Positions 16,615 through 31,987 of a stretch of DNA of 64,000 bases are shown here, piece after piece. The DNA comes from Chloroflexota bacterium (GTDB lineage: Bacteria; Chloroflexota; Dehalococcoidia; Dehalococcoidales; SURF-40), in NCBI GenBank assembly GCA_043803245.1, contig JAZDKE010000013.1:4142-68141 (forward strand). Direction: 5' to 3'. Every line of letters begins with the position of its first letter. Position 1 is the first letter of the stretch. Position numbers and translations under genes: made by a program. A model generated the notes under the pieces. That model was not told the DNA's origin. It made no database searches and saw nothing but the letters and a program-made list of their open reading frames with translations.

Positions 16615-17989
16615 AAACTTCATCGCCGAGCTAAACCGCCGGGACACCGAACGAATCAAATCCTACCAGACCCTGCTCAATTTCTACCAGGGGCAGCACT
16701 GGCCGGACCGCCCCCGTTGGGGAGAAAAACGCCTCACCTTCAACTATGCCCGGCTGTTCGTGGACAAGATAACCTCCTACTTAATGTCGGGCGTGAGCTT
16801 CGCCATTGATGCCGCCCAGGACAGCGACCAGGCCAGGCAACAGGCACAGCGGGCCGAAGCCGCCCTGCTCGAGGTCTACCAGCAGAACAGTCTGGAACAG
16901 CTTGACCTCGAAACGGAGACCGACTGCGCCGTGATGGGCGACGCCGCCTACAAGGTAATCTGGGACAGCGCCGCAAAAACGGTGCGGGTGACCGCCCCCG
17001 ATATCCAGGGCATCTACGCCTGGTGGCCGGGCGACGACGCCGCCCAGGTCTGGCGGGTAGCCTCCAAATACCGCCTCTCCCCGGAGGAAAGCGAGCGGCT
17101 CTACCAGCGCAAACCGCGGGGCGAGACCGCAACCGTCATCGAGGTCTGGACAGATGCTAGTTTCGAGCTTTACCTGGATGGCGAGCTGCTCGAAAGCCGG
17201 CCCAACCCCTACCGATGCATACCTTTCGTTATCTACCCTAACATGCGCGAGCCCAAGAAATTATGGGGGGTCTCCGACCTTGTCCCGATTATGGAAGGCC
17301 AGCAGGAACTCAACCGCGCCCTGAGCCAGCTATCGAGAATCCTGGAGCTGTCCGGCAACCCCATCGCGGTGCTGGAGAACGTGGAGGGGTCACAGGACAT
17401 CGCGGTGAGACCCGGCGCCGTCTGGAACCTGCCGGAAGACTCCCGCGCCTATCTGCTCGACCTCCTGCAGGGCGGGGGCCTGAACCTCCACATTGATTAC
17501 ATCAACCTGCTCTACCGGAGCCTGCACGACTTAGCGGAGTCGCCCCGGGCGGCCTTCGGCGGCACGGAACGCGACCTCTCCGGCGTCGCCCTGGAAATTG
17601 AGCTCCAGCCGCTGCTGCAAAAGGTCAGCCGCAAACGCATCATCCGCAGTGCGACTTACAACCGCCGCAACCGCCTCATCCTGGACCTGCTGGAAAAGTA
17701 CCGGGGTGAGGACTTCGGCCCCCTGCGCCTGCGCACCGTCTGGTGCCCGGTAATGCCCCGCGACACCGCACGTCTGGTCTCAAGCGAACAGACGCTCATC
17801 CAGAGCGGCATCCATTCCCGTCGCCGGGCGATGGACGAGCTGGGAGTGGCCGACCCGGAGTTGGAGTTCCGGCGGTGGCTCGAAGAAAGAGCGCAAATCC
17901 TGAAAATGAACCAGGAATTTAATGCCCGAGGCCCCAAGACCTCAAGGGAGAGAGGCACCGAAGGCCGGGCTGACGGCAGCGAAGAATAA
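16607..17989 (+). CDS. Phage portal protein
   Basis: 460-aa ORF between terL and the scaffold/capsid genes. Its size and the N-terminal YQTLLNFYQGQHW pattern are typical of SPP1-gp6-type portals. Confidence 0.7.
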   Translation: MTENFIAELNRRDTERIKSYQTLLNFYQGQHWPDRPRWGEKRLTFNYARLFVDKITSYLMSGVSFAIDAAQDSDQARQQAQRAEAALLEVYQQNSLEQLDLETETDCAVMGDAAYKVIWDSAAKTVRVTAPDIQGIYAWWPGDDAAQVWRVASKYRLSPEESERLYQRKPRGETATVIEVWTDASFELYLDGELLESRPNPYRCIPFVIYPNMREPKKLWGVSDLVPIMEGQQELNRALSQLSRILELSGNPIAVLENVEGSQDIAVRPGAVWNLPEDSRAYLLDLLQGGGLNLHIDYINLLYRSLHDLAESPRAAFGGTERDLSGVALEIELQPLLQKVSRKRIIRSATYNRRNRLILDLLEKYRGEDFGPLRLRTVWCPVMPRDTARLVSSEQTLIQSGIHSRRRAMDELGVADPELEFRRWLEERAQILKMNQEFNARGPKTSRERGTEGRADGSEE

Positions 17990-18010
17990 GCTAAAAAGGA
18001 GGTGAGACTC

Positions 18011-18502
18011 TTGCCCGAGGAAACCGTAATCGTGGAACCAGAGCATAGCCCGGAGCCGGAAGGCAAGCCCCAAGCCAATGCTGAGCGTGAGGAGATGGCC
18101 GGGGCGGCCCAGATTGCCGAGCTCGAAAGCCGGTTAGCCGAAAAAGAAGCGGCTTTATCCGGGGCCAACGAACGCCTGAGCAGGCTGGCGGCGGCCATCG
18201 CCGAGCTGGAGGCCAGACTCGCCCGGGCCGCCGCCAGCTACCGGACGCTCATCATTGCGGCCCATCCCGAAATTCCCGAAGACCTGATAAGCGGCCAGAG
18301 CGTCGAGGAAATCGAGGCCTCCCTGGAGAAAGCCCGCAGCCTGGTGAGCCGGGTGAGACAGGGGCTGGAGATGGCTGCGACCCAGGGCCGGGTGCCCCCC
18401 GGCGCACCCCCGAGGACGGTACCTGACCTGTCGAGCCTGTCCCCGCGCGAAAAAATTCAATACGGCATAGGAGGTAAGAAAAATGGCATTAACTCTTTCT
18501 GA
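18011..18502 (+). CDS. Scaffold-like coiled-coil protein
   Basis: Ala/Glu/Leu-rich ORF in the canonical position between portal and capsid genes. AAGGAGG lies 8 nt upstream of TTG 18011; the track ORF starts at 18002. Confidence 0.5.
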   Translation: MPEETVIVEPEHSPEPEGKPQANAEREEMAGAAQIAELESRLAEKEAALSGANERLSRLAAAIAELEARLARAAASYRTLIIAAHPEIPEDLISGQSVEEIEASLEKARSLVSRVRQGLEMAATQGRVPPGAPPRTVPDLSSLSPREKIQYGIGGKKNGINSF

Positions 18503-19403
18503 AGCGAGCAAGCTCGCTAACGACGTCCTGCTTCAGGGTGTGGTCGAGACCATCGTCAAGGAGTCCCCGGTGCTCCAGCGGCTGCCCTTCATCGAAATCG
18601 CCGGCAACGGTCTCACCTACAACCAGGAGAAGACCCTGCCCGGCATCGACTTCTACGATGTCGGCGATACCTGGGTGGAATCCACTCCGACCTTCGAGCA
18701 GAAAACCGCCCATCTCAAGATTATGGGTGGCGACGCCGACGTGGACAACTTCCTGAAGTCCACCCGGAACAATATCCAGGATTTGGAGACGGCGGTGGTC
18801 GAACTCAAGGCCAAGGCCCTCAAGGACAAGTTCGAGGAGTCTTTCATCTACGGTAACGCCACCGCCAATCCCAAGCAGTTCGACGGCCTGAGACTGCTCA
18901 TCGGCACCACCAGCTCAGGCGGCCAGGTAGTTGCCGCCGGCGCCACTGGCGCCACCCTGACCCTTTCCATGCTCGACCAGCTCATTGACACCGTAAAAGG
19001 CGGCAAGCCCGACATGCTGCTCATGAGCCGGCGCTCGCGAAGGAAAATCAACGCCCTGGTGCGCGCTTCCGGCAGTATGCTGGACACCGACCGCGACCGC
19101 TGGGGCAACTTCGTCCAGTACTGGGACGGCATCCCCATCGGGGTTAACGACTGGATACTGGACACCCACAACGTCGCCGGCAGCGTGGAAACGGCCACCA
19201 CCGGCGGTGACAGCTCCACCATCTACGCTGTCCAGCTAGGAGAAGGTGCCCTTGCGGGACTGACCAGCCCGGGACACATGGTCGCCGAGCACATCGGCAA
19301 CCTTGAGTCCAAAGACGCCAGCCGCACCCGGGTCAAGTGGTACGTCTCGCTGGCGCTCTTCAGCACGGTCAAGGCCGCCGCATTAATCGGCGTGCAGGAC
19401 TAA
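18483..19403 (+). CDS. Phage major capsid protein (HK97-fold type)
   Basis: 306-aa ORF preceded by a GGAGG RBS. Its position and sequence pattern (..FIYGNATANPKQFDGL..) are typical of major capsid proteins. Confidence 0.75.
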   Translation: MALTLSEASKLANDVLLQGVVETIVKESPVLQRLPFIEIAGNGLTYNQEKTLPGIDFYDVGDTWVESTPTFEQKTAHLKIMGGDADVDNFLKSTRNNIQDLETAVVELKAKALKDKFEESFIYGNATANPKQFDGLRLLIGTTSSGGQVVAAGATGATLTLSMLDQLIDTVKGGKPDMLLMSRRSRRKINALVRASGSMLDTDRDRWGNFVQYWDGIPIGVNDWILDTHNVAGSVETATTGGDSSTIYAVQLGEGALAGLTSPGHMVAEHIGNLESKDASRTRVKWYVSLALFSTVKAAALIGVQD

Positions 19404-19465
19404 AGGAAATGCCTTTCAGGAGGACTTAAAATAGCCCCCGTTCTACGCCTGAAAATAAAACCTGA

Positions 19466-19489
19466 GGGGGGAGGCAGCTGCCTCCCCCC
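19466..19489. terminator. Perfect 24-nt GC-rich palindrome after the capsid gene
   Basis: GGGGGGAGGCAG/CTGCCTCCCCCC. An A-tract lies upstream on the + strand, which equals a T-tract downstream on the - strand. Confidence 0.4.
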
Positions 19490-19507
19490 CCGATGAGGAG
19501 GATTAAT

Positions 19508-19972
19508 ATGGCACTGAGCGTAATCGAACACACCGAGCATCCCTTCGCCAGGGGGAGCCTGACCGCCGACGGCATCCAGTGGTCGGCGGAGAAGACCACC
19601 AGCACCGATGACTACGAGACCGTCGAGCAAGCTACGGTGAAGCCGCCGGCCCTGGGCACCATCCTGGAGTTCGAGTTCGGGCTTACCTGCGCCATAAAGT
19701 CAAGCGGAGCCACCGAAGCTGCCAAGTTCAAATGGCAGGCGTGCAACAAAGGCGGCACCTGGGTTGACCTCCACGACGAGGTGACCTACGCCGCCGATGC
19801 CTCAAGCTACCGCGGATATACCTACAGCGGTCGCCGCGGCACAGCGGCCAACTTCAACACCGTGCCTTTCGAAGTCCGGCTGGTAATCAAGTCCGGCGGG
19901 GCCGGAGGTGAGAATGCCACTAGCAAGACCAAAAACTCAAGCTACGTCAAGGTAATCTACGCTGCTGCGTGA
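19508..19972 (+). CDS. Hypothetical structural protein
   Basis: A GAGGAGG RBS precedes ATG 19508. The 154-aa product is beta-rich and sits downstream of the capsid gene. Confidence 0.5.
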   Translation: MALSVIEHTEHPFARGSLTADGIQWSAEKTTSTDDYETVEQATVKPPALGTILEFEFGLTCAIKSSGATEAAKFKWQACNKGGTWVDLHDEVTYAADASSYRGYTYSGRRGTAANFNTVPFEVRLVIKSGGAGGENATSKTKNSSYVKVIYAAA

Positions 19973-19980
19973 GGTGCGCT

Positions 19981-20619
19981 ATGGACTTTATCCGCGATAC
20001 CAACCTCATCCTCTACCTGCCGCTCTATGAACTCGATGGCGCTTCCATCCAGGACAGGTCGGCCTATGGCCACCTATCTGTGGTCACCGGTGCTTTGTGG
20101 ACTCCGCAGGGCAGGAGTTTTGACGGGGTAGATGACCAGATAGCCATCGCCACCAGTACAGTCTTTGATATACCTGATACCATCACGCTTGAAGGTTGGA
20201 TAAACATAGCAAGTGTTGTCAGTATGGCGGGCTTTATCGCTCGGTCTACTGGATGGGAACTCCGGCAAAGTGCCAGTGGCCAAATAATATTCCTGCCTTT
20301 TATTGATGCTGCTTGGCGAGACGGTGGGGCAAGTAGTGTTTTATCTGCGAGCCAGTGGTTTCATATTGCGTTCACATATTCTAGCGCTACCAGACAGGCA
20401 CTAACGTACCGCGATGCAGTTTTGGAGAGTTCCGTTATATTTTCGGGACTTGCTAGTTACACATTGGGAACTGGCGCAGCTTCAGTACTATTAGGTTACG
20501 ATGTTCTGAACGGCGTGGTTTTCAATGGCAAACTAGGCGAAATCCGCATCTACAATCGTGTTCTATCTGCGGTAGAGATACAGAATAACTACCTCGCTAC
20601 GAAGTGGAGGTATCAATGA
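19981..20619 (+). CDS. LamG/concanavalin-A-like lectin domain protein
   Basis: Laminin_G_3-type pattern: D.S..G......GA.W...G..FDG.DD.I; W.HIAFTY; F.G.LGEIRIYNRVLSAVEI. The DNA is visibly more AT-rich than its neighbours. Confidence 0.7.
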   Translation: MDFIRDTNLILYLPLYELDGASIQDRSAYGHLSVVTGALWTPQGRSFDGVDDQIAIATSTVFDIPDTITLEGWINIASVVSMAGFIARSTGWELRQSASGQIIFLPFIDAAWRDGGASSVLSASQWFHIAFTYSSATRQALTYRDAVLESSVIFSGLASYTLGTGAASVLLGYDVLNGVVFNGKLGEIRIYNRVLSAVEIQNNYLATKWRYQ

Positions 20620-20834
20620 AGTATCGAGTAAAACTGGACTTGTTATTTGACAATGAGGCTCTAGCCCGCAACCTGATGAGCTATGCCAAGTCCCTTACGG
20701 GCAAGGCGACGAGCCTTAACGAAGGCAACGCCAGCGAGGAGATAAGCTTCGCCGATATCCACCTCTGCGGGCACGACGAGTCCCCACCCAAGCCTTGCCA
20801 GCCCATGGAACGGGTCGAGGTGAGAAAGGCGTAA
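20616..20834 (+). CDS. Hypothetical small protein
   Basis: A GGAGG RBS precedes ATG 20616. The product is 72 aa. Confidence 0.45.
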   Translation: MKYRVKLDLLFDNEALARNLMSYAKSLTGKATSLNEGNASEEISFADIHLCGHDESPPKPCQPMERVEVRKA

Positions 20835-20844
20835 GGAGAACGAG

Positions 20845-21477
20845 ATGAACTTGAGCGATATGAGGACCACCGTCCGGCGCGAGCTCCACGATGAGGACTC
20901 TGGCAACTACCGCTGGAGCAACGACGAGCTCGACCGGCACATCGCCCGGGCAGTGGGAGAACTCTCCGAGCACCTTCCCAGCGAGCAGAAAGCGACCAAA
21001 GCCACTACTTCCGGCTCGCGAGAACTGGACATCACCAGCCTCGCCGACCGGGTAATGGTCGAAGCCGTGGAGTACCCGGTGGGCCAGTTTCCCCCCAGAT
21101 ACCAGCGCTTCGCGCTCTGGGGGGAAACCCTGACCCTGCTCGGCGATGAGGTCCCCGGCGGGGGCAACGCCTACGTCTACTACGGCAAACGGCACACTCT
21201 TGACGCCCAGGGCACCACCATCCCCAGCCGCTACCAGGACCTGGTAGCCGGCGGCGCCGCCGGCTACGCCGCCGTCGAATGGGCCGCCTACGCCATCAAC
21301 CGGGTGAACGTTGGCGGCCACCTGACACCCCGCGAATTCCTCGACTGGGGGAAGGAAAAACTGGCTTTCTTCCAGAGCGAGCTCAGGCGGCTGGGGCGGC
21401 GGAACCGGACCAGAGTGAGCACCCTCTACCGTCCCTATTACCCGCCGGTGTCCCAGATCACCGACTACGGGCCATAA
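20845..21477 (+). CDS. Head-tail adaptor-like protein
   Basis: 210-aa ORF with an AAGGAG RBS. The N-terminus (LSDMRTTVRRELHDED..YRWSNDELDRHIARA) resembles phage connector/adaptor proteins. Confidence 0.45.
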   Translation: MNLSDMRTTVRRELHDEDSGNYRWSNDELDRHIARAVGELSEHLPSEQKATKATTSGSRELDITSLADRVMVEAVEYPVGQFPPRYQRFALWGETLTLLGDEVPGGGNAYVYYGKRHTLDAQGTTIPSRYQDLVAGGAAGYAAVEWAAYAINRVNVGGHLTPREFLDWGKEKLAFFQSELRRLGRRNRTRVSTLYRPYYPPVSQITDYGP

Positions 21478-21504
21478 GCAAGTCTGACCAGGGTGAGATG
21501 AAGA

Positions 21505-23508
21505 ATGAGAAGCCTTACACAAACACTAACCAGCGCTCAAAAGGCACCGGCTAAAATACCTTATGTCAAACTGAAAGCCCGGAACACCACCGGCGGCCTG
21601 GTACGTCTCGACTGGAGCCGGCTCTACAGCGGCAGCGAGGACGACTATCTCCACGCCGCGACTATGCCCGCCGACGGCTCACTGATACGGGCCAGGGTCA
21701 CCCCGCTTAGCGACAACCTGAAACTCTACCGCCAGCGGGTAGCCAGCCCCGGCCCGGGTTCCGACTTTAGCCAGTGGAGCTACACCAACCAGTACGGCGT
21801 GCTGGCAGTGGCCGGCGCTTCCCGGGACGCCGAAGCGTCCATTTTCTGGATAAAGAACAACCGTGAAATCCGTCAGATGAAGAGCACCGACTACGGCGCC
21901 AGCTGGGGCAGCCCCACCCTGCTGGACTACTCGCCCACCACCGGGGTGGGCGGCCTGGCAGCCGCCTACAAAAGTAACGGCGACATCGCCCTGTTCTATG
22001 CCGAGCAGGCCACCCTTTACGTAATCAAACGCACCGGCGGTAGCTGGGGCAGCCGCGTTGCCTGGGACAAGTCCACCGGCAACCTGTCGGGCGTGGCTAC
22101 CGCCTATGACGGGGACTGGCACCTGCTGGTGACGGGCCAGGACTCAAGCGGCAACTACCGGCTCTGGTCGCTGGTCTACGGCGACGGCGGTGAGCTGGCA
22201 GCCGGCACCTGGTCAGACCTCAAAACGGTCGCCCAGGCACCCTCGGACGGCGACTATGAATACCACGGCGTCTTCATCGACCTGCCCGACGTCCACCGTA
22301 CCTTCTTCACCGAAAAATATAGCGGCACCGAAGCCTACCAGCGCCCTTTCTGGAGCCACACCATCGCCCAGACCAGCTTCCTGGATAACCTCTGGCGCGA
22401 GCCGGTGCCCTTTAACCTCTCGGCCAGCTACGGTCTGGCCATCACCCATCACGGCGACTGGGCCTGGCTAACCGCCCCCTTTGGCGTCTGGCGAGCCAAG
22501 CTCACCCAGGAGAGCCTTGACCTGGCGGAAGATGTGCTTTCCATCAGGGAGGAACTGGCCACCACCGGCGGCGAGCTTGAGATTGAGTTAAGGAACGATG
22601 ACGGCCGCTACGCCTCGCCGGGGACGGGGGCCATCTCTTTGCTGAACATCGGCGGCGAGCTGGAGTTCAGTCCCGGCTACCGGACGACCGAAGGCAACGA
22701 GGTCAGTGACGGCCAGTTCTTCAGCCTTGAAGCCTGGGAGCACACCAGTTCTCCGGGCAGGGCCACGCTGGTGCTCCATGCCCGCGACGCCTGGCACTGG
22801 CTTGGCAACTTCCGCGCCGGTCACCAGTTCCGCTGGAACAAAGCCAGTGAAGAGCTGAACGTCAAGGGGATGCTCGCCTTCGTGCTGTCCCGGGTGGGGC
22901 TGAGGCTCGAAGTGATATCTCAGTCCAGCACCGCCACCGGGTTCTACCCGGACTTCACCATCAGACCGGGCGACCAGGGCGACGTTATCATAAGCCGGCT
23001 GCTCAGTTTCATACCCGACGTTATCCGGCTGGAAGGCGCTACCGCCTACCTTATTAACCCCCAGACTACCGACAGCGCCGACTACGGCTACGGCGCCGGC
23101 CACGCCATTTTCGAGGGGAGCTACCTCAAAGGCGCCCTCAAGCAAAACCTGGTTGAAGTCGAAGGCTACGACCCGCCAGGCGGCACGCCGATTATCGCCA
23201 GCGTTTTCGACTGGGACGAGATAGGCCGGCTCTACCACCGGCGCCGGCGCATTGAGGACCGCAACCTGAAATCCACCACCCAGGCCCAGGGTCGTGGCGA
23301 GAGCTACCTGAGAGAGGCCGCGATAACGGCCGGGGGCGGCACGCTCCGGGTGCCGGTTAATGCCGGTCAGCAGCTATACGATGTTATCGAAATTACTGAC
23401 CGCCTCGCCGGGCTCGACGCTGAGAAAAAGAGGGTCTTAAAAATCGGCCTGGCCTATCATCCCGCCCGCGCCCGGTACGAGATGAGGCTCGGCCTGGGCA
23501 ATGTCTAA
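21505..23508 (+). CDS. BNR/Asp-box beta-propeller fused to a phage tail/baseplate-hub-like C-terminal half
   Basis: 667-aa ORF with the Asp-box STDYGASW plus related repeats in the N-half. The C-half pattern (ELEIELRNDDGRY..IGGELEFSPGYRT..) is typical of tail hub/late-control-D-like proteins. Confidence 0.5.
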   Translation: MRSLTQTLTSAQKAPAKIPYVKLKARNTTGGLVRLDWSRLYSGSEDDYLHAATMPADGSLIRARVTPLSDNLKLYRQRVASPGPGSDFSQWSYTNQYGVLAVAGASRDAEASIFWIKNNREIRQMKSTDYGASWGSPTLLDYSPTTGVGGLAAAYKSNGDIALFYAEQATLYVIKRTGGSWGSRVAWDKSTGNLSGVATAYDGDWHLLVTGQDSSGNYRLWSLVYGDGGELAAGTWSDLKTVAQAPSDGDYEYHGVFIDLPDVHRTFFTEKYSGTEAYQRPFWSHTIAQTSFLDNLWREPVPFNLSASYGLAITHHGDWAWLTAPFGVWRAKLTQESLDLAEDVLSIREELATTGGELEIELRNDDGRYASPGTGAISLLNIGGELEFSPGYRTTEGNEVSDGQFFSLEAWEHTSSPGRATLVLHARDAWHWLGNFRAGHQFRWNKASEELNVKGMLAFVLSRVGLRLEVISQSSTATGFYPDFTIRPGDQGDVIISRLLSFIPDVIRLEGATAYLINPQTTDSADYGYGAGHAIFEGSYLKGALKQNLVEVEGYDPPGGTPIIASVFDWDEIGRLYHRRRRIEDRNLKSTTQAQGRGESYLREAAITAGGGTLRVPVNAGQQLYDVIEITDRLAGLDAEKKRVLKIGLAYHPARARYEMRLGLGNV

Positions 23509-23538
23509 AAATCGCCGTTACGCCGAAGGAGAGCCGGA

Positions 23539-23751
23539 ATGAACCTGAAAAAAGCCATCCTCAAGAGTTTTAGCCAGAGCGACTACACCGCCACCGTCCA
23601 GCTTAGCGGCAGCCTCAAGGTCTACCTGGAAGATGTCACCGTAGCCCGAAACCTGCCCGCAGGAGAGATGACCGCCGGCCGCAAGGTCGCGGTGCTCTTC
23701 TTCAACGATTTCAATGCCCGAGAAGCCCTGGTAATCGCGGTTTACACCTAG
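23539..23751 (+). CDS. Hypothetical small protein (last gene of the phage-like block)
   Basis: 70-aa ORF with an AAGGAG RBS. Confidence 0.5.
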   Translation: MNLKKAILKSFSQSDYTATVQLSGSLKVYLEDVTVARNLPAGEMTAGRKVAVLFFNDFNAREALVIAVYT

Positions 23752-23777: not shown

Positions 23778-24878
23778 CTAGCCGGGAGGCCGCTGGTTCC
23801 GCCAGTGCCCGGGGATGGCCAGCTCTTTTTTAACCGTTCGGTCGGGCGTCTTATCCGGCTCAGGCGAAATCCGCGGCTCTACCGGGGGATTTTCCGCCTT
23901 TGTCTTATGGGCGAAATGCATCGGGCTGGTATGGGCGATAACCTCCGGGGAATGGGCGGCGACCCGGGGCCGTCCCGGCGAGACAACCGGCACCGGGGTG
24001 AACCTCATCCGGCCGGGAACCTGGGTGGTCTGGGGCGAGCGATATGAAACCATGGGGGCGCTGGGCGCCACCTTCTCGGCGGGCGGCGTCGGCGGTTTTT
24101 CTTCCATTGATTTATAGAAACGGCCCAGCATCTTCTCCTGCTCGGCGGTGGTTCTGGCCAGGTCCTGAGAAGCGGCGCTAAGACCCTGTATTGCCGAAGT
24201 GTGGCTTTTTAAATGCTCGGCATAAAGCTCGATTGCGGAGCCGAACTTGGCCAGGGTCCGCTCCAGGCCGTCCATCTTTTTCTCGGTGTTGACTACCTTC
24301 TCCGCTACCAGCTCGCTACCATGCTGGCTCTCTTCAATGATGCGCCGGTTAGCCTCAATGACCGGGGCGAAAATGCCCTGCTGCAGCCGCATCCGGCCCC
24401 GGTTAATCTCATCGACGTAGAGGAAAAGACCCATCAGGACCACCGAGATAATCAGGAACATCAATCCCTGGTCGCTCTGGAAGAAGAGCAGGATAAAGCC
24501 TGCGTAAGGGATGCGGCTCGAAGCGACACCCAGTATGTCGTTGGAGCGCACCGTGAACGGGTCGCCGCCGGTGTTGTCGCCCTTGGTGCGGAACCCCTTG
24601 CCCGCCGGCCCCATGTCGCGGACTTCGGTCACACGGTGGGCCACTACCGGCGGGTAGTTGTAAAAATCGCGGACGGCTGAGGGCACGCTGAAAACGATAA
24701 CGTCGCCGGCTTTGACGTCATTAGGATTAATCTCACTAATCATAATCAGGTCGCCGGCCCTGAGTTCCGGCTCCATGCTGACGCCGAAGACGGGCATAAA
24801 GGGCATCGCGCCCCGGATGGATAAGAAGCCCGCGACGCAGACCGCGATTACGATTATCAGCAGGAGTAACCTTTTCAT
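23778..24878 (-). CDS. SipW-like (S26B, ER/archaeal-type) signal peptidase I with a long C-terminal extension
   Basis: 366-aa ORF with an N-terminal TM, Ser box GVSMEP, His box AHRV and a KGDN box. A second TM is followed by ~200 aa of helical then Pro-rich sequence. Confidence 0.78.
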   Translation of the reverse strand: MKRLLLLIIVIAVCVAGFLSIRGAMPFMPVFGVSMEPELRAGDLIMISEINPNDVKAGDVIVFSVPSAVRDFYNYPPVVAHRVTEVRDMGPAGKGFRTKGDNTGGDPFTVRSNDILGVASSRIPYAGFILLFFQSDQGLMFLIISVVLMGLFLYVDEINRGRMRLQQGIFAPVIEANRRIIEESQHGSELVAEKVVNTEKKMDGLERTLAKFGSAIELYAEHLKSHTSAIQGLSAASQDLARTTAEQEKMLGRFYKSMEEKPPTPPAEKVAPSAPMVSYRSPQTTQVPGRMRFTPVPVVSPGRPRVAAHSPEVIAHTSPMHFAHKTKAENPPVEPRISPEPDKTPDRTVKKELAIPGHWRNQRPPG

Positions 24879-24933
24879 GTTCGGCTTAACTCGCCCGGTT
24901 CTGGCCCGCTCCTTTTAGACTTACCTATCTTCA

Positions 24934-25008
24934 AAGATAACACCCCATCATAAAAGCGGCCATAAAGATTATAAAGATTCCATTAAGTTTTTATTAAAGT
25001 TTCGTAAA
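24934..25008 (-). promoter_or_regulatory. Phased six-repeat array plus -10 element upstream of the signal peptidase gene
   Basis: Minus-strand repeats start at 25008, 24997, 24986, 24975, 24966 and 24954 (spacing 11-11-11-9-12). TATCTT lies at 24934-24939. The first repeat is 130 nt from the start codon. Confidence 0.65.
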
Positions 25009-25027
25009 ATCGTGCCCTGGCATACCG

Positions 25028-26062
25028 CTACCGCTGGCTAACCTCCGGATAAAGCTCAGGTGTCACCGTCCAGCCCGCCTCCCAGCTGGTAGTATTGGCC
25101 GAAACCAGCCGGTAGCTGCCTCCCACCACCCTGAGTGCCTGGCTGCCGGGGAGACCACCCGGCAGGTTGAAGACGGCCCCGCCGTTCTCCAGGCTGAGAA
25201 TCTCATAACCGGGTGACCCGGAGGCCTCCACCGAGTCCTGGAGATAGAGATTAAGTCTCAACTCCCGATAAGCCTTGAGCAGGTCGCCGGTATTCATGAG
25301 GTAGACCCGGACCTGCAGGTATTCACTCAGTCCCGGGGCCGGGGTGACGGCAAAGAGGTCACCGGTGGGAGCGCTGCCCGAGATGAGCGTCTGGCGGTAG
25401 CTTGCCGCTACCGTAACCTGGGTCAGGCGTACCGTAGCCTTATTATCATCGGTCTTAATCCTGGCACCAGCCTGCAGGTCATTAAGCTCTGGCACCGTCC
25501 AGGCGGCCCCGGTACGGGGGTTGGTCGGCCAGTGGTATGACCGGGTGACGAAGGCCGGTCCGAGCTGGCTCTCCTCAGCCCCACTATAAACGCTGCCTCC
25601 GGTCTTGATGACCGCGCTGGCGTAGCCGATTATATCCTGGTTACCGCCGGAGAAGCGGAAGCTCACGGTCAAATCGGTTATCGCAACATCAGCTATGTCC
25701 GGGTCACTTAAGTTATAGAGGTCGGTCTGGTAATTCTTGCTATCGGTATAGACGAAGGTCGCAGCATCGTCCGGCGTACTTTCGGCCACCTTGTCAAAGT
25801 GCTCTCCCGACTCCGGCCACTGGTCGGATATCCTGGCCTGGTCGCCGCGGCCAATTACCCAGAGCATCTCCCCGCCCTCAACGGTATAGGGCATCACCTG
25901 TTCCCAGTCGGGCTGGCTTGCGGCCACGGCAATGGTGGCGATATCACCGGTCGGCTCCAGGGTGTTCACCACACTGGAAGATACGCGGTAGGCATAAGCC
26001 GAAGCCCCTCCCACCAGCACCAGGAAGGCCAGAACCTGAAAAATGACCAGACCCTTTCTCAT
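25028..26062 (-). CDS. Secreted fibre-subunit paralog with inserted domain (P4)
   Basis: 344-aa ORF with signal peptide ..LVGGASAYAYR. It shares the blocks GDIATI, TGDLFAVTP..LQVRVYLMNTGDLLKAY, LSLENGGAVF, VVGGSYR and C-terminal PELYPEVSQR with P1-P3. Confidence 0.65.
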   Translation of the reverse strand: MRKGLVIFQVLAFLVLVGGASAYAYRVSSSVVNTLEPTGDIATIAVAASQPDWEQVMPYTVEGGEMLWVIGRGDQARISDQWPESGEHFDKVAESTPDDAATFVYTDSKNYQTDLYNLSDPDIADVAITDLTVSFRFSGGNQDIIGYASAVIKTGGSVYSGAEESQLGPAFVTRSYHWPTNPRTGAAWTVPELNDLQAGARIKTDDNKATVRLTQVTVAASYRQTLISGSAPTGDLFAVTPAPGLSEYLQVRVYLMNTGDLLKAYRELRLNLYLQDSVEASGSPGYEILSLENGGAVFNLPGGLPGSQALRVVGGSYRLVSANTTSWEAGWTVTPELYPEVSQR

Positions 26063-26064
26063 GG

Positions 26065-27516
26065 CTAGCGCTGCACCACTTCGCCGTAAATTTCGGGTAT
26101 GATGCTCCAGCCGCTAGCCCAGTCCTCAGAGTCCCCTGAGACCTTGTGGTAGCTGCCGCCGACCACCGAGAGCCTGGAGTCAGACAGGCCGCCGCCGCCG
26201 CCGATGGTGTAGGTGATGGTAACATCGCTCAGGGTTGGGGTGCGGCTGCCATTACCGGAGAAGACCGCCCGGAACTGAAACCAGCGGTCGCCATCGTGGA
26301 CAGGGTTAATGGCAGTGTTACTTGCGGTGTAGTAGTCACCGGTGCCGGTAGGCCCGTACCAGACCGCGCTGGCAAGCCCACCGGAAGTCGCCGCCGACCT
26401 GAGCTGGAACTTGATATCGGTGCCCGACGGCTCGGTAATGGTGAAACCGATGGTGCCGAAATCGGCGTTGCTACCGCCGTCACGGGCCTGGGAGATAAGG
26501 CTGCCGGATAGTTGGTACTGAGTCCCCCATACCAGCCTGACATTATCCACGTAAAGAAAATCGTTACCCCCCGACATTCCGATGCCATTGAAAGCAATCC
26601 GGAACTCGCCGGACATGGGGAAAGCGGAGAGGTCGATGTCGTAGAAGCGATAGGTGTCATCATCATCACCGTCAGTCCAGCTCCGCACCGTGGTCCAGTT
26701 GGTATCATCAGGGCTGACCCGGGCACTGGCTACGTCTCCAGACTCCAGGGAATCAGCCTTTGCCCAGAACTGGAGACGGACGTTGGTCTTTCCCACGAGG
26801 TTCAGCGCCCGTTCGGCGTAGCCATTCGTCCCCCGGACAAGCAGGTGGTAGCTACCCTGGTAAGGGCCGTCGTCGTCGGTAACATCAGCCAGGCCGGCGT
26901 GGCGCCACCAGGGGTAGAGCCAGCCACTGCCGCCGGACCAGCCGCCGCTTTCGAAGTCATCCGAAGCGATGATACTCGTCGCCGACGCAAGTTTAACGTC
27001 ACCGGGGCTGCTGGTGGTATCCAGGTTCGTAAGTGTGCCCGCCTCAAAATCAGCCTGGGTCGTCTGCGTCCAGCTCACCGGGGAGGGCACGCTGCCGTTC
27101 CCGGTCAGGCTGAAAGTGGCCACGCCGTTATCCAGCGTCAGGACTCGGTAGTCAGGTGTGCTCCCCGCCTCCTCAGAGTTCTCCAGGTACAGCTTGATAT
27201 TGAGGTAGCGGTAGGCTTTGATGAGCGCATTGGTGTTGGTAAGAGAGGCCTTGACCACCAGGTCGCCACTGTAGCCCGGCTGAGGACTGATGTTGTACAG
27301 GTCGCCGGTGGGCACGTCGCCGCTTAAAGTGGCGGTTTGCGAAATGAGCGAGCCCCAGTCCGGCTGGCTAACCGCCTTGCTAACGGTGGCAATATCGCCG
27401 CTGGGTTCCGACACCCCCAGGGTTAAAGCACGGTTGTTATAGGTGTAGGCGAAGCCGCCGCCGCTGACCAGCAGGACAAGCAGTAACACCCCCGCAAACC
27501 ACAACTTCTTCGGCAT
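26065..27516 (-). CDS. Secreted fibre-subunit paralog with large inserted domains (P3)
   Basis: 483-aa ORF with signal peptide ..LVSGGGFAYTY and the same core blocks as P1, P2 and P4. About 300 aa are inserted before the last core strands, and the C-terminus is PEIYGEVVQR. Confidence 0.65.
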   Translation of the reverse strand: MPKKLWFAGVLLLVLLVSGGGFAYTYNNRALTLGVSEPSGDIATVSKAVSQPDWGSLISQTATLSGDVPTGDLYNISPQPGYSGDLVVKASLTNTNALIKAYRYLNIKLYLENSEEAGSTPDYRVLTLDNGVATFSLTGNGSVPSPVSWTQTTQADFEAGTLTNLDTTSSPGDVKLASATSIIASDDFESGGWSGGSGWLYPWWRHAGLADVTDDDGPYQGSYHLLVRGTNGYAERALNLVGKTNVRLQFWAKADSLESGDVASARVSPDDTNWTTVRSWTDGDDDDTYRFYDIDLSAFPMSGEFRIAFNGIGMSGGNDFLYVDNVRLVWGTQYQLSGSLISQARDGGSNADFGTIGFTITEPSGTDIKFQLRSAATSGGLASAVWYGPTGTGDYYTASNTAINPVHDGDRWFQFRAVFSGNGSRTPTLSDVTITYTIGGGGGLSDSRLSVVGGSYHKVSGDSEDWASGWSIIPEIYGEVVQR

Positions 27517-27543
27517 TTGCCTTATCCCACGGCCCAGGGCAGC

Positions 27544-28068
27544 CTATCGCTGGGTAACTTCGAGAAAGAGCTGCGGCTGGACGCTGCCACCGGTGAGCGA
27601 TTTCCAGGGATGAAGTTTGTAGCCGCCGCCCGATAGCTTAACCTTGTAAGGCCCCGTACCGGTGCCGTTGGCCCAGGTGAACAGGACGCTGCCATTCTGG
27701 AGGTTGAGCACCTGAATCTGCCCCTGTTCGTCAACGATGTTGCCGCCGTTATCAACCAGCGTAAGCGACATATTCAGGTGATTATACTGGCGGATGAGCT
27801 GGCCGGCGTTCACCAGGTCAACCCTGACGGCCAGGTCCCCGGTGTAGCTGCCGTTCGGTGTGATGTTGAAAAGCGTGCCCGTTGGCCAGGTGCCGGTGAA
27901 ATTGCCGAAGACGGTGGGCGCGGTGATGTTGCCCGATGTCACCGTGGCGAAGTCCGATTCCGCGGCGTTAACCCCGATGGTCGTGGTCGCCGTGGTGAAA
28001 GTAAAGGCATACATACCCAGGCTACCCACCAGCACCACCGCAAAAATTATGATGATGAGTCTCTTCAT
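27544..28068 (-). CDS. Small secreted fibre-subunit paralog (P2)
   Basis: GGAGG lies 8 nt upstream of ATG 28068. The 174-aa product has signal peptide ..LVGSLGMYAFTF and blocks SDFATV, TGTLFNITP..GDLAVRVDLVN, LNLQNGSVLF, GGGYK and PQLFLEVTQR. Confidence 0.7.
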   Translation of the reverse strand: MKRLIIIIFAVVLVGSLGMYAFTFTTATTTIGVNAAESDFATVTSGNITAPTVFGNFTGTWPTGTLFNITPNGSYTGDLAVRVDLVNAGQLIRQYNHLNMSLTLVDNGGNIVDEQGQIQVLNLQNGSVLFTWANGTGTGPYKVKLSGGGYKLHPWKSLTGGSVQPQLFLEVTQR

Positions 28069-28129
28069 CTTACTGCCCTCCAAGAATATTCCTGTCCCAT
28101 ATCCTACTCTCTTCCCAGCTTTTACTCAA

Positions 28130-28158
28130 ACGGGGCTCTCGTTAGCCGAGAGCCCCGT
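28130..28158 (-). terminator. Strong stem-loop immediately after the P1 gene (attenuator candidate)
   Basis: ACGGGGCTCTCG / CGAGAGCCCCGT form a 12-bp stem with a 5-nt loop. On the minus strand it is followed by TTTGAG. Confidence 0.45.
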
Positions 28159-28185
28159 CTTACCATTCAAGCCATCAAGCTAAAA

Positions 28186-28773
28186 TTAGCCGGCCTGAAC
28201 CACATCCGCGTAAAGCGTCGGACCATAGATGCTGCCGGAGATGAATGCCCAGGGGAAAGCGCGGTAGATGCCGCCGGTGGTCCTGATGTAGTAGGTCGTG
28301 CCGCCGGTCAGGCTGTCGGCGAGGAAGGTAACGACGCCGTTGTTCAGGGTGAGCGGCTTCGTTATCCCCTCGCTGTCAACCGGAGTGCCGTTGAAAGCGG
28401 TCAGTTGGAGCTTCATCAGGAACATGCCGTAGGTCTTGGAAAGCTGGTCAAGGTTGGTGAGATAGACGCTCACCTCAAGGTCTCCGGGGTAACCAGTTGC
28501 CGGGGTGAGGTTAAACAGGTTGCCCGAGCCGATGGCGCCGCGGTAGCTGCCGAACACGCTGTAGCTGGCCACGGTGTTGTTGGCGGCTACACTGGCGAAA
28601 TCATTGCCACCGGAGGTGGCGGTAATGTCCGTGGACGCCGAGGTGTAGGTGAAGGCGAACATGGTAGCGCTGGCCACAAAAGCCAGTGCCAGGGCACCCA
28701 CCAGCACCTGCCGGAACGCGCCCATCTTGGTAAAACTCTGTGCTATTTTCTTTTTTTGCTCCTTGCTAAACAA
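28186..28773 (-). CDS. Small secreted fibre-subunit paralog (P1)
   Basis: 195-aa ORF with a basic n-region, signal peptide ..FVASATMFAFTY and blocks NDFASV, GNLFNLTP..GDLEVSVYLTN, LTLNNGVVTF and TGGIYR. The start is uncertain (TTG 28773 or Met17). Confidence 0.7.
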   Translation of the reverse strand: MFSKEQKKKIAQSFTKMGAFRQVLVGALALAFVASATMFAFTYTSASTDITATSGGNDFASVAANNTVASYSVFGSYRGAIGSGNLFNLTPATGYPGDLEVSVYLTNLDQLSKTYGMFLMKLQLTAFNGTPVDSEGITKPLTLNNGVVTFLADSLTGGTTYYIRTTGGIYRAFPWAFISGSIYGPTLYADVVQAG

Positions 28774-28863: not shown

Positions 28864-29643
28864 CTATTTCAGCTCGGACATGAACGAGAGGAACCGTTCC
28901 CTGAGGCCGCTCTTAAAGGTATCAAAGTCGCTTTTGGTGATATAGTCACCCTTCGGCCCGCCATCTGAACTCTGAGGCAGGGCGGGGCTGTTCTGTCCCA
29001 CGATTATCAGCCGGCGGTGCCGCTCGTTAGTCACCAGCTTGTAGAGGATAATCTCAAGCTCGTGGCTTATGACATCCTCGGCCAGGGAAAGGGCTTTCGC
29101 CGCCTGTTCCAGGGTACTGCCGCCGGCCAGGTGCCGCATTATCTCCGCCTCGCGGGGCGTGAGACGGGCCATCATATCAGCCAGGCTGCCGCCAATCGAA
29201 CCGAACCGCTCGAACTCGTCGAGCGCCCGCCTGGCGATTTGGGGTTTAAGCAGCGCCCGGCTGATGGGATTAGCGCCCTGGACAACCTCGTTGATGATGT
29301 CAATCAGGTCGCCGGGGTCAATGTCTTTGGTAACACAGGCGCTGGCCCCGCTTTTCAAGGCGAAGTAGAATTTCTCTTCGTTTTCGCTTTCCATCACTAA
29401 AATCACCGAGACCTCGGGCAGGGTCTGCTTGATGCGGCCGGTGGCTTCGCTGCCCGTTAACCGCCCATGTTCGGCGTTCAAAATTGCGATGCGGGGCGGC
29501 TTCTGCTCGATGAAGGCCAGGGCTTCTTCGCTTGAGGTTGTCTCGCCGATAACCTCGATATCCTCTTCTCCGGACAGGGTAAAGTGGATACCTTCCCGGA
29601 AGAGTACCTGCCAATCTGATAAAAATACGGTGACTTTTTCCAT
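28864..29643 (-). CDS. LuxR/NarL-type response-regulator-like protein with a degenerate receiver
   Basis: 259-aa ORF with a C-terminal LuxR HTH (TPREAEIMRHLAGGSTLEQAAKALSLAEDVISHEL). The receiver-like N-half has SD in place of the acidic DD pair and N in place of the phospho-acceptor Asp (..IAILNAE..). Confidence 0.7.
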   Translation of the reverse strand: MEKVTVFLSDWQVLFREGIHFTLSGEEDIEVIGETTSSEEALAFIEQKPPRIAILNAEHGRLTGSEATGRIKQTLPEVSVILVMESENEEKFYFALKSGASACVTKDIDPGDLIDIINEVVQGANPISRALLKPQIARRALDEFERFGSIGGSLADMMARLTPREAEIMRHLAGGSTLEQAAKALSLAEDVISHELEIILYKLVTNERHRRLIIVGQNSPALPQSSDGGPKGDYITKSDFDTFKSGLRERFLSFMSELK

Positions 29644-29835: not shown

Positions 29836-30528
29836 CTATGGACGGATAAACTTGTAGCCCATACCGTGCTCGGTGGTGATGATGGCCGGGACTTCGACGT
29901 TGTCGCCCAGCTTCTGCCGGAGGTGCTGGATATGCACCCGGAGCAGGTCGCGGGAGTCGCCGTAGTCATCCCCCCAGATCCTGGTTAGCAGGGTCTCGTG
30001 GGAGAGCAGGCGACCCTCGTTTTTAATCAATTGATAAAGCAGCTTATACTCGGTGGCGGTGAGTTTGACCGGCTTATCGTGCACCTTTACCTCACCGCTG
30101 GCAAAATCCACCCACAGTTTGCCGCTGGCAAACGGCTCCTGCTCGCTACCGGCCACCACCCGGCCCTGGACGCGGCGCAGGACCGCCTGTACCCGGGCCA
30201 TTAGCTCAACGTGGCTGAACGGCTTGGTGATATAGTCGTCGGCCCCCAGCTCAAGACCGCGGGCGACATCGACATCTTCGCCGCGCACGGTAAGCATGAT
30301 GACCGGCACCTGAGAAAACCGCCTTATCTCGCGCAGCGTCTCGAAACCGTCCATGTCCGGCAGGCCCACGTCAAGAATGACCAGGTCGGGGGTCTCGGCC
30401 TCGACCATTTCCAGTCCGCTCTTGCCCGAACCGGCGGAGACTACCTGGGTGCCACTCCAGCGCATCTTGAAGCACAGCGAGACCACTTCAACGATTTCAC
30501 TCGAGTCGTCAACTACCAGCACCTTCAC
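29836..30528 (-). CDS. OmpR/PhoB-family response regulator
   Basis: 230-aa ORF with a canonical receiver (VVDDS, LVILDVGLPD, KPF) and a winged-helix C-terminus. Confidence 0.88.
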   Translation of the reverse strand: MKVLVVDDSSEIVEVVSLCFKMRWSGTQVVSAGSGKSGLEMVEAETPDLVILDVGLPDMDGFETLREIRRFSQVPVIMLTVRGEDVDVARGLELGADDYITKPFSHVELMARVQAVLRRVQGRVVAGSEQEPFASGKLWVDFASGEVKVHDKPVKLTATEYKLLYQLIKNEGRLLSHETLLTRIWGDDYGDSRDLLRVHIQHLRQKLGDNVEVPAIITTEHGMGYKFIRP

Positions 30529-31271
30529 TTGCTACCAACCTCCGGCGAAGGGTTTTTATCCAGGGGCAAAGAGAAGAAAAAGCTGGAACCTTTGGCCTCC
30601 TCGCTCTCCAGCCACACTTTGCCACCGTGTTTTTCCACCAGCGACCGGGTGATGGTCAGGCCGAGACCACTGCCGACCAGCTTGCCGCTGCCCCGTCCCA
30701 TCTGATAGTAAGGCTTGAAGATGTTCTCCCACTCCCGGCGCGGAATACCGACTCCGGTATCGCTCACCCGGGTAACGAGCGTGTTACCATCCTGCCAGAC
30801 CGAAAGCGCGATACGACCGCCATCCGGGGTGAAATTGCCGGCATTAGACAGCAAATTCTCCAGGATTTGCTCAAGACACCGCCGGTCAGCCCTGACCCTG
30901 GGCAGCGAGTTGGGAATGTCCAGAATTAGCTGCTGACCCCGGCCCTGAAAGATGGCGTAAATTTGAGTGGTGACACTCGAAATCAAGTGCCCCAGGTCAA
31001 GCGTCTCGGGGGACAGATGTACATCCGCCACCAGCCACTGCGTCACTTTAGAAAGGTCGGAAAGTCTCTCTTTGAGACGGTGGGCGTTACGGATGATGCT
31101 GCAAATAAGCCGACCAGTGTTACTTTGCTCATTCTGGTTGAGTTCTTCGCCCAGAAGCTCCGCGGACACGATAATGGCACTGAGCGGGGTCTTGAGCTCG
31201 TGCATGATGGTGGCGGTGTAGTCTACTCCCCGACGGTTAGCAGCCGTGGCGGCTTCTATCGGTTTACCCAT
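30525..31271 (-). CDS. Histidine kinase core without a recognisable sensor or TM domain
   Basis: 248-aa ORF with the H-box IMHELKTPLSAI starting about residue 23, plus N, G1 (DTGVGI) and G2 (GSGLGL) boxes. Its stop overlaps the regulator start (4 nt). Confidence 0.85.
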   Translation of the reverse strand: MGKPIEAATAANRRGVDYTATIMHELKTPLSAIIVSAELLGEELNQNEQSNTGRLICSIIRNAHRLKERLSDLSKVTQWLVADVHLSPETLDLGHLISSVTTQIYAIFQGRGQQLILDIPNSLPRVRADRRCLEQILENLLSNAGNFTPDGGRIALSVWQDGNTLVTRVSDTGVGIPRREWENIFKPYYQMGRGSGKLVGSGLGLTITRSLVEKHGGKVWLESEEAKGSSFFFSLPLDKNPSPEVGSK

Positions 31272-31356: not shown

Positions 31357-31737
31357 TTAATCACGCAGGCTACGCGCGATATTTTTCAGCATGGTGAGGA
31401 CGCTGACCACCGCCCGCTGCACTTCCGGCGGTTCCTGCCCGAGAACACTGGCCACATAAGGGTCAAGGCGGCCGCCGGTGTAATTATTACCTCTCTCGGC
31501 CACGCCGGCGCTGTGCCGCGAGAGATAGCCGGCCAGGTAAAAAAGCTCGTCTTCATCAAAACCCAGCGGCCCGGCGATACGGTGCAGGATGTGGGCCGAG
31601 GGGAAGCGCTGGCCTCTCTCCACCCGGCCCAGGTGCGAGGGAGAGACCCCGGACTTCGCCGAAAGCTGCTGCAATGTCATATCCCCCGCAACCCGCTGCT
31701 GCTTGATGATTTTGCCCAGTTCCTTTCCTTCCGTCAT
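31357..31737 (-). CDS. XRE-family HTH transcriptional regulator
   Basis: HTH MTLQQLSAKSGVSPSHLGRVERGQR. The start is placed at the Met of MTEGKELGK (31737) because the promoter at 31762-31791 lies inside the longer track ORF. Confidence 0.75.
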   Translation of the reverse strand: MTEGKELGKIIKQQRVAGDMTLQQLSAKSGVSPSHLGRVERGQRFPSAHILHRIAGPLGFDEDELFYLAGYLSRHSAGVAERGNNYTGGRLDPYVASVLGQEPPEVQRAVVSVLTMLKNIARSLRD

Positions 31738-31761
31738 CGCCCCCACCTTTAGTCCTGCCTG

Positions 31762-31791
31762 ATTATAGATTTGCCAAATGGCAAATGTCAA
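31762..31791 (-). promoter_or_regulatory. Consensus promoter with an 18-nt palindromic operator in its spacer
   Basis: On the minus strand: TTGACA (31786-31791), an 18-nt spacer, then TATAAT (31762-31767). The spacer is the near-perfect palindrome ATTTGCCA-AA-TGGCAAAT (31769-31786). Confidence 0.6.
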
Positions 31792-31987
31792 CATAGCCGG
31801 TGATTTTTGCCAGTAAAACCAATATATCGTGCCGGCATGAATTATCCATAAAAAATCCATAAAATAAGTGTATATTTTTAACCGAAGTATGAACCGGCAC
31901 CGACCGAGAGCCTCCCTTTCACCTAATTTATACTTCGGTCAATGTTCCCCCTTCCTTGACGGCCAAACCCGGCGCGGCTAGAATAGC

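Follow-up and report, generated by a model that had tools for sequence, protein, structure and literature searches.

What is made by five genes that lie one behind the other on the same strand of a Dehalococcoidia genome, four of them encoding paralogous secreted proteins and the fifth a signal peptidase? The genes were found in the list of open reading frames (ORFs) at positions 23778–28773, on the minus strand, of a 64,000 nucleotide stretch of contig JAZDKE010000013.1 (assembly GCA_043803245.1), referred to here as the window. The best supported answer, with a probability of about 0.7, is a surface fibre (or tube) belonging to the TasA superfamily, with jelly-roll subunits like CanA and CanX and an archaeal-type signal peptidase of its own for maturation. 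An initial annotation had predicted the five ORFs, and all are present at their predicted coordinates. It had also taken the genome to be Chloroflexota-like, which is borne out: the close relatives are exclusively Dehalococcoidia metagenome-assembled genomes (MAGs), and NCBI labels the contig 'MAG: Chloroflexota bacterium' (locus tags of the form V1823_017xx).

The small subunit P1 (28186..28773) has 195 amino acids (aa) from a TTG codon, or 179 aa from an internal ATG in the NCBI annotation. The second small subunit, P2 (27544..28083), has 179 aa from TTG and 174 aa from ATG. These are followed by the large subunits P3 (26065..27516, 483 aa) and P4 (25028..26062, 344 aa) and by the signal peptidase gene (23778..24878, 366 aa). 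A scan for promoters and terminators, which is not decisive, gave a promoter-like site at 24968–24997, inside the 149 bp gap ahead of the peptidase gene, and no convincing terminator after P1.

An AlphaFold2 model of P2, made with 22 homologs in the alignment, has a jelly-roll core, with a predicted local distance difference test score (pLDDT) of 78.5 and only residues 23–33 below 50. The first six Foldseek matches of this model in the PDB are all subunits of donor-strand fibres. The Hyper2 tube 9bab is at the top (E 5e-6, TM-score 0.62), followed by CanX 9h8b, CanA 7uii, 9hdi and 9dlo, and the bundling pilin AbpA 7ueg (E 6e-4). The five matches ahead of AbpA have Foldseek probabilities of 1.00, E-values of 5e-6 to 2.5e-5 and TM-scores of 0.46–0.62. 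FimA/FimG, the Sulfolobus thread 7pnb and Ena come next; AbpA, the thread and FimA/FimG have E-values between 6e-4 and 5e-3. Carbohydrate-binding modules (CBMs) and GOLD domains are among the still lower matches of P2 and P4. A structural comparison with TasA and the bundling pilins had been proposed in the initial annotation, and with Hyper2, CanX, CanA and AbpA as its top matches the fold is not an unrelated one.

The sequence evidence points the same way. A profile of 58 diverse small subunits (A3), run against 177,635 PDB sequences, matches CanA with an E-value of 3.2e-5 (26.8 bits) and CanX with 1.3e-3, and nothing else below E=1. The match falls in the most conserved block of the family, where VtVyLaNadeLakaYrylnl is aligned with VKLKVTLANAEQLKPYFKYLQI and LtLengevsf with VISLDNPSAVI. 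Motifs common to the family and CanA/CanX are V.V.LaNa..L..Y.yL and LtL.Ng, and identity to CanA, CanX and Hyper2 is only 13–20%. A narrower profile (A2) gave chance matches among the PDB sequences, such as orotidine monophosphate decarboxylase, and the broader A3 was needed to find CanA and CanX.

CanA and CanX have been placed in the TasA superfamily (PMC12518558), and their kinship to P1–P4 therefore makes the latter a CanA-like branch of this superfamily rather than part of the TasA family. The subunits had been described as TasA-like, which holds for the superfamily fold and the kinship to CanA/CanX, but not for the TasA family itself, as the nearest relatives are archaeal cannula proteins. 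The TasA family proper (PF12389) was ruled out by the absence of a Pfam match together with an hhalign comparison of A3 with a 26-member TasA alignment, which gave a probability of 4.6% and was confined to 15 columns at the cleavage site, with TgG-FA↓y opposite GGGTWA↓AF. Because there is no kinship beyond that site, the family is not filed under PF12389. The shared core of P1–P4 belongs to no Pfam, NCBIfam or PHROG family (Pfam 2025 and NCBIfam 20.0 were used), and no Pfam family recurs across the 58 diverse members. A word-indexed search gave 37 relatives, exclusively from Chloroflexota or Dehalococcoidia MAGs, and HMMER, run exhaustively against 1.84 billion cluster representatives, gave 286, with 181 of these below 1e-10. 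The family therefore comprises at least 286 clusters at 50% identity in metagenomes.

The four proteins are mutually alignable, as predicted, with 31–37% identity across a common core some 150 residues long. In pairwise BLASTP comparisons, scaled to a database of 1e8 residues, the E-values are 5e-24 for P1 and P2, 4e-15 for P3 and P4, 2e-11 for P2 and P4, 7e-11 for P2 and P3, 7e-8 for P1 and P3, and 2e-4 for P1 and P4, and the four proteins are therefore true paralogs. The sequence blocks listed in the initial annotation were largely found. The block D[IF]A[TS][VI] is in all four proteins, and L.L.NG...F and GG.Y are likewise present. The block TG.L[FY]N..P holds in general, but P1 has SG for TG and P4 has FAVTP, and the C-terminal block P.[LI][YF]..V.QR is shared by P2, P3 and P4, but not by P1, which ends in QAG.

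P1, the product of the first structural gene, is likely to be the major subunit. Its orthologs share 34–56% identity across loci, versus 55–66% for those of P2, and this consistently greater divergence suits an exposed major subunit. P3 and P4 consist of the small core with large insertions, placed in two different loops. The P3 insertion, in a C-terminal loop, is about 300 aa long (about residues 141–442, nucleotides 26191–27096) and has sub-threshold Pfam and NCBIfam matches to choice-of-anchor J (28 bits, cutoff 30), CBM_4_9 and MAM. That of P4 is a beta-sandwich of about 165 aa after the first core strand (about residues 57–222, nucleotides 25397–25894), with weak matches to two PHROG families, including phrog_6368. 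The AlphaFold2 model of P4 (pLDDT 86.8, residues 18–36 below 50) has two beta-sandwich domains. Its multi-domain Foldseek matches, all with low TM-scores of about 0.2, are to tandem CBM22, CBM11, a Bacteroides surface glycan-binding protein and MAM-type sandwiches. At such TM-scores, a carbohydrate-binding label for the P4 insert is a hint and not a finding. The inserts of P3 and P4 may be lectin-like display domains on fibre-compatible cores, with glycan binding hinted at, and the two proteins would be minor, tip or decorating subunits. The proposed division into two small core and two large accessory subunits fits the comparative data, in which P1 and P2 are always present and P3 and P4 are variable.

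The N-termini of all four proteins are predicted signal peptides. In P1 this spans approximately residues 1–40 (nucleotides 28654–28773), with predicted cleavage after ..ATMFA↓FTYTSAST, and in P2 residues 1–26 (nucleotides 28006–28083), with predicted cleavage after ..LGMYA↓FTFTTATTTI. The corresponding regions are residues 1–23 in P3 and 1–22 in P4. Across the 58 members, a basic stretch leads into a Leu/Ala-rich helix that ends in T-G-G-x-[FY]-A. Position -1 is Ala in 53 of the 58, the remainder having Val, Gly or Ser, position -2 is F or Y in 55, and position -3 varies between Leu, Val, Ser, Met, Thr and Ile. The Gly-Gly pair at -5/-4 acts as a helix breaker. Measured against the motif alone, the N-termini look cleavable: a canonical h-region is followed by the Gly-Gly breaker, and -3 and -1 are occupied by small residues. 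Resemblance to the SipW-cognate signal, which had been suggested, is seen in the Gly-Gly, the aromatic -2 and the Ala at -1, both by eye and in the hhalign comparison with TasA, but it does not extend to the family model of that signal, TIGR04088.

The predicted mature proteins start with [YF]-[TGA]-[YF]-T. The stretch behind it is rich in Thr and Ser and has hydrophobic residues at alternating positions. The segment behind the cleavage site is the sole low-confidence, unstructured part of both monomer models (residues 23–33 of P2 and 18–36 of P4). This is as expected of an N-terminal extension that has its partner groove in another subunit, and P1 and P2 may therefore polymerise by N-terminal donor-strand complementation.

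Roughly 45 of the 149 best-scoring family representatives have a further conserved domain, some 60 aa long, at the N-terminus ahead of the signal helix. It is absent from P1 of the window. Examples are P0011, P0039, P0043 and P0066, and the genes in the P1 position of the loci numbered L009, L010, L108, L109 and L110. Its consensus is MVEIRYGEH..DLAGKSVAEAREQY..FGIPDKA.AKLNGK...DDDKLSF, with repeated sub-threshold matches to ThiS and ThiS-like domains (beta-grasp, ubiquitin-like). One relative has two copies of the domain, and two giant members have a zinc ribbon in its place. It is unusual for a presumably cleaved signal peptide to carry a folded cytoplasmic domain.

The signal peptidase belongs to the archaeal and endoplasmic reticulum class. 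Its catalytic part, residues 1–157 (24408..24878), has a first transmembrane helix, an extracytoplasmic S26B domain and a second transmembrane helix, as delimited by TIGR02228, alignment with SEC11A/C and hydropathy; the hydrophobic segments are residues 1–28 and approximately 126–156. It scores 85.7 bits with TIGR02228, the archaeal-type signal peptidase I, above the cutoff of 51.85, versus 29.8 bits with bacterial LepB (TIGR02227, cutoff 47) and 54.4 bits with the Bacillus SipW equivalog (NF046067, cutoff 190), both below. In a phmmer search of solved structures it aligns only with human SEC11A/C, including a SEC11A entry with the catalytic Ser mutated to Ala, and SMEP, HRV and KGDN are in register. 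The motifs noted earlier, GVSMEP, AHRV and KGDN, are present and aligned with the Ser, His and Asp regions of SEC11A/C. The predicted catalytic set is S34, H81 and D100, a Ser/His/Asp arrangement rather than the Ser/Lys dyad of S26A, and the enzyme, with TIGR02228 passed, is not of the housekeeping S26A type. The earlier label of a SipW-like S26B peptidase stands for the class, which is shared, but not for orthology, because the score is far below the SipW equivalog cutoff.

The remainder of the enzyme, residues 158–366 (23778..24407), is a cytoplasmic C-terminal extension of about 210 residues, basic, helical and Pro-rich, in which a helical segment with a conserved motif is followed by a basic Pro-rich tail. 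The composition recorded for this part shows an isoelectric point of 9.7 and 11.7% proline. No Pfam or NCBIfam family matches the extension. Its motif, F..AIE.Y.EHL..HT..[IV].GL, recurs in the partner peptidases of the distant metagenome locus L025 and the Bacillota locus L107, and therefore marks a peptidase subfamily of its own. The partner enzymes of L001, L002, L023 and L025 also score above the TIGR02228 cutoff, at 86–89 bits. In an IMG/VR fragment (L098, 10927–11859), a gene between the capsid module described below and the LuxR-type regulator keeps the two transmembrane segments and the tail of the peptidase without its catalytic domain, and the subunit genes are absent. In this lineage the locus could be decaying, or the tail could have a separate function.

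The association of these genes is strictly conserved. A genome scan gave 20 loci, all in Dehalococcoidia MAGs, with the fixed order of an XRE-type helix-turn-helix (HTH) regulator, histidine kinase, OmpR-type regulator, LuxR-type regulator, P1, P2, [P3], [P4] and peptidase, the brackets marking genes that may be missing. P1 and P2 are in every locus. The length of P3 varies between 288 and 1587 aa, and some loci lack it. P4, usually of about 345 aa, has 180 aa and no insert in L003, and L002 and L007 do not have it. The peptidase is found in all loci that reach past the subunits, and those without it stop at a contig edge. Remoter members of the family were found in Paenibacillus darwinianus (WP_036579908.1) and Terrihalobacillus insolitus (WP_272437925.1), and also in a Desulfotomaculum MAG and on unassigned contigs. 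The four distant loci examined (P. darwinianus, T. insolitus and two metagenome contigs) all have a peptidase gene 3' of the subunit gene. These are two- and three-gene versions of the locus; L106 and L107 have a second subunit-like gene before the peptidase, and their partner enzymes match Pfam Peptidase_S26.

Starting instead from the peptidase, three homologs on long contigs all have a LuxR-type regulator and three to four uncharacterised genes upstream, recognised by sizes as seen for P1, P2, P3 and P4 and not by the subunit profile. Co-conservation had been proposed as a check, and the subunits and peptidase are paired in all assessable loci, in two phyla and from both starting points. 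In this respect the locus fits a dedicated fibre-plus-peptidase operon of the TasA/SipW type, co-conserved across two phyla. The strict co-conservation of a dedicated peptidase argues for cleavage of the subunits, for which the cognate enzyme would be responsible. In L108, from another Dehalococcoidia sublineage, the fibre locus does not adjoin the capsid module and is followed by a type IV pilus cluster (11208–21086) with a prepilin peptidase, a PilS-like kinase, a regulator, several N_methyl pilins, PilM and a T2SSF-type platform protein. This suggests a surface-appendage neighbourhood.

The regulatory genes upstream of P1 are all on the minus strand. Immediately next to it is a LuxR/NarL-type response regulator (28864..29643; Response_reg and GerE), which adjoins the subunit genes on their upstream side in all Dehalococcoidia loci with enough sequence there. 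An OmpR-type response regulator (29836–30528) and a short sensor-less histidine kinase (30525–31271), named from the family content of the syntenic genes, form a pair that is syntenic in most loci. An XRE-type HTH regulator (31357..31860; HTH_3 and HTH_31) is at the head of the conserved block. In the LuxR/NarL-type receiver, N56 (..AILNAEHG..) is opposite the phospho-acceptor D59 of NarL, and S-D corresponds to the D-D of NarL. The position was taken from the NarL alignment, as BLASTP of both response regulators was uninformative. The L098 ortholog has Ser at this position. Because Asn replaces the phospho-acceptor Asp, this is probably a phosphorylation-independent pseudo-receiver regulator.

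On its other side the fibre locus is convergent to a compact capsid module (12372–23751), encoded on the plus strand with one gene inside on the minus strand. It begins with a possible TerS (12372–12734) and TerL (12756–14156), followed by the minus-strand TIG/Ig-domain gene (14304–16091), a 107 aa ORF and the portal (16607–17989), then the scaffold. The HK97-type major capsid protein (18483–19403; phrog_212, 6.5e-69) is at most 39% identical to known phages. After it are a 159 aa ORF, a LamG protein, an SU10-type adaptor (20845–21477), a 667 aa protein without a family and a 70 aa ORF (23539–23751). Among the ORFs of this stretch that were examined, none was identified as a tail-tube, lysis, replication or integrase gene. 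Upstream of the module are genes for a HerA-type (DUF87/HAS-barrel) ATPase and a NurA nuclease (6906–8525 and 10295–11551, minus strand), followed by a CT398-like coiled-coil/zinc-ribbon protein (11508–12224). Gene order downstream of the portal is constant in the loci and IMG/VR fragments examined. The capsid protein is 77–85% identical in 80 IMG/VR fragments, versus approximately 50–70% for neighbouring host genes. The module looks like a vertically inherited, selected element, and is possibly a gene-transfer-agent-like particle. No literature linking gene transfer agents substantively with Dehalococcoidia was found.

Taken as a fibre operon, the locus may function as follows. Judging from the conserved synteny, the XRE regulator, the histidine kinase and the OmpR-type and atypical LuxR-type regulators would control its transcription. 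P1–P4 would be inserted by Sec through their N-terminal signal anchors. The peptidase, with its two transmembrane helices and Ser/His/Asp set, would then cut after T-G-G-x-[FY]-A, a step suggested by the motif, the co-conservation and the precedent of TasA and SipW. The new N-terminus would be an aromatic residue leading into an amphipathic strand rich in Thr and Ser, and this strand could fill the open beta-sheet groove of the next subunit, giving a chaperone-free polymer as in CanA, Hyper2, AbpA and TasA. The donor-strand step is proposed because of this homology and the disordered N-terminal segment in both models. P1 and P2 would form the shaft, and P3 and P4, which have the core, the donor strand and the lectin-like sandwiches, may be variable adhesive, tip or decorating subunits.

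Several observations weigh against this reading. PF12389 has no match at E≤1 in P1–P4 or in any of the 58 diverse members, and neither does TIGR04088 in NCBIfam. The match of profile A3 covers just 60–73 columns and is distant and partial, and the TM-scores to CanA-type structures are moderate (0.46–0.62). The residue at -3 is often Leu or Met, which is tolerated by type I signal peptidases but is not ideal. No anchoring protein, whether TapA-like, a sortase substrate or an S-layer homology (SLH) protein, is evident in the locus. Aspartate and glutamate (D+E) make up 5–6% of mature P1 and P2, which are therefore not acidic; the Ca2+-bridge chemistry may differ from that of CanA and AbpX, and Ca2+-driven assembly is uncertain. 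Polymerisation itself is argued from homology. The shape of a polymer may also differ from that of a thin pilus, since the tube-formers Hyper2, CanX and CanA rank above the thin-filament AbpA, FimA and thread. Parts and maturation would then be unchanged, but the assembled structure and its biology would be different, serving cell-cell connection or a matrix. Wide hollow tubes, a sheath or a matrix lattice, as in Pyrodictium cannulae and Hyper2, are nevertheless rather unlikely, given the distant kinship at 13–20% identity, the Ca2+ sites and acidic residues that cannula assembly needs and in which P1 and P2 are poor, and the dedicated peptidase and minor subunits that cannula loci do not have (PMC12518558).

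If P1–P4 did not polymerise, they would be secreted or anchored surface proteins, such as lectins or S-layer-associated proteins, that are jelly-rolls by fold only, and either the peptidase would process them or the helix would be an uncleaved anchor. Jelly-roll and CBM-like folds are common among monomeric binding proteins, the lower Foldseek matches are of this kind (CBMs and GOLD domains), and the cytoplasmic domain before the helix in about 45 of the 149 best representatives is more suggestive of a type II membrane protein than of a classical signal peptide. However, the top structural matches are donor-strand fibre subunits, the profile matches only CanA and CanX, and several paralogs with one N-terminal strand motif are the pattern of major and minor pilin sets. 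The fibre-specific matches, the conserved cleavage site with its Ala at -1 and Gly-Gly breaker, and the obligatorily linked peptidase make the non-polymerising alternative improbable. That the genes belong to the adjoining phage-like element, as virion fibres, receptor-binding proteins or a lysogenic-conversion cassette, is suggested by their position directly beside the conserved capsid module in many Dehalococcoidia loci and by the weak PHROG matches of the P4 insert. This can hardly be the case, as the Bacillota loci, L108 and L109 carry fibre genes with no phage genes nearby, L097 and L103 have the capsid module without fibre genes, and Sec signal peptides with a membrane signal peptidase are unsuited to cytoplasmic virion assembly. 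Compared with a viral structure library, the subunit model has weak generic jelly-roll matches (TM-score about 0.3), and for this reason, and because the fibre locus and capsid module occur apart, the phage-fibre explanation was rejected.

A surface fibre of the TasA superfamily is therefore the preferred reading, and a more far-reaching form of it may be considered. The Dehalococcoidia have an archaeon-like envelope with an S-layer and no peptidoglycan. There is a slim chance that true cannula-like tubes, or matrix fibres, are made by these bacteria with CanA-type subunits that they obtained from the Thermoproteota or have in common with them, coupled to a dedicated archaeal-type peptidase. 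On this reading, cleavage would in many lineages leave the beta-grasp domain of the major pre-subunit in the membrane, where it could link fibre export to an intracellular signal, with the conserved peptidase tail as a candidate partner.

The Dehalococcoidia are ecologically important, hard-to-grow subsurface and dechlorinating bacteria, and to our knowledge their attachment and syntrophic contacts are poorly understood. The locus provides a concrete candidate appendage for them. It extends the CanA-like family into the bacteria, in a branch that is undetected by current family models and that is wired to the SipW-type peptidase class, to minor subunits with lectin-like inserts and to a conserved regulatory cassette. 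TasA-superfamily fibres are emerging as a cross-domain means for biofilm matrices and cell-cell connections. The named species P. darwinianus and T. insolitus carry members, and the 150 aa small subunits suit in vitro assembly and cryo-electron microscopy. The ubiquitin-like domain ahead of the signal helix in many members raises a new question about its role.

Of the known systems, the cannula proteins CanA and CanX of Pyrodictium abyssi and Hyper2 of Hyperthermus are the closest, being the best structural matches and, for CanA and CanX, the sole PDB sequence matches below E=1. Both groups are mature jelly-rolls of about 150 aa with an N-terminal strand behind a Sec/signal peptidase I (SPase I) signal. 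CanX has been reported only from the Pyrodictiaceae and CanX-like proteins mostly from the Thermoproteota, which for this branch means hyperthermophiles (PMC12518558), whereas the present family is bacterial, from the Dehalococcoidia and a few Bacillota. Minor subunits and a dedicated peptidase are reported to be lacking from the cannula loci (PMC12518558), and both are present here, and P1 and P2 lack the acidic character of the cannula proteins.

The tapA-sipW-tasA operon of Bacillus subtilis (PMC9674648) similarly encodes a dedicated archaeal-type signal peptidase beside its fibre subunits, has a signal ending in Gly-Gly-x-aromatic-Ala and has paralogous accessory subunits, and donor-strand exchange from the N-terminal strand is expected in both systems. 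Unlike that operon, the present locus has subunits without a PF12389 match, a peptidase that is not a SipW ortholog and that carries a cytoplasmic tail of about 210 aa with its own conserved motif, and no TapA-like gene.

Loci for AbpX, which is found in archaea and has homologs in the bacterial phyla Chloroflexota and Bacillota (bioRxiv 10.64898/2026.01.04.697558), follow the same logic as the present one: next to major and minor subunits they encode tip proteins that carry additional domains, an SPase I dedicated to the system and two-component regulators. AbpX is 30–35% identical to TasA-family proteins and acidic, with about 15% D+E, and the peptidase of its loci has ten transmembrane helices and often a DUF5305 partner (bioRxiv 10.64898/2026.01.04.697558). 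In contrast, the present subunits have no TasA-family signal, P1 and P2 have 5–6% D+E and a mature start of [YF]-x-[YF]-T, and the peptidase has two transmembrane helices and no DUF5305 partner. No accession matching this family is in the supplement of that paper.

AbpA of Pyrobaculum (PMC9245690), the Sulfolobus thread 7pnb and FimA/FimG are also donor-strand polymers, with lower but significant fold matches, but they have no sequence-level signal with the present family. A dedicated peptidase is missing from AbpA loci, and the chaperone and usher on which chaperone-usher pili depend are both absent from the present locus. Literature searches on SipW in the Dehalococcoidia and on bacterial CanA homologs turned up neither this family nor any SipW-type system in the Dehalococcoidia. 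The initial annotation had seen here an analogous fibre locus with a dedicated peptidase, not recognisable as a described system. This is supported, with the qualification that the subunits are CanA-like rather than TasA-like and that their cleavage and polymerisation are predicted by analogy. The locus looks like an undescribed bacterial branch of a known type of surface-fibre system, rather than a new category.

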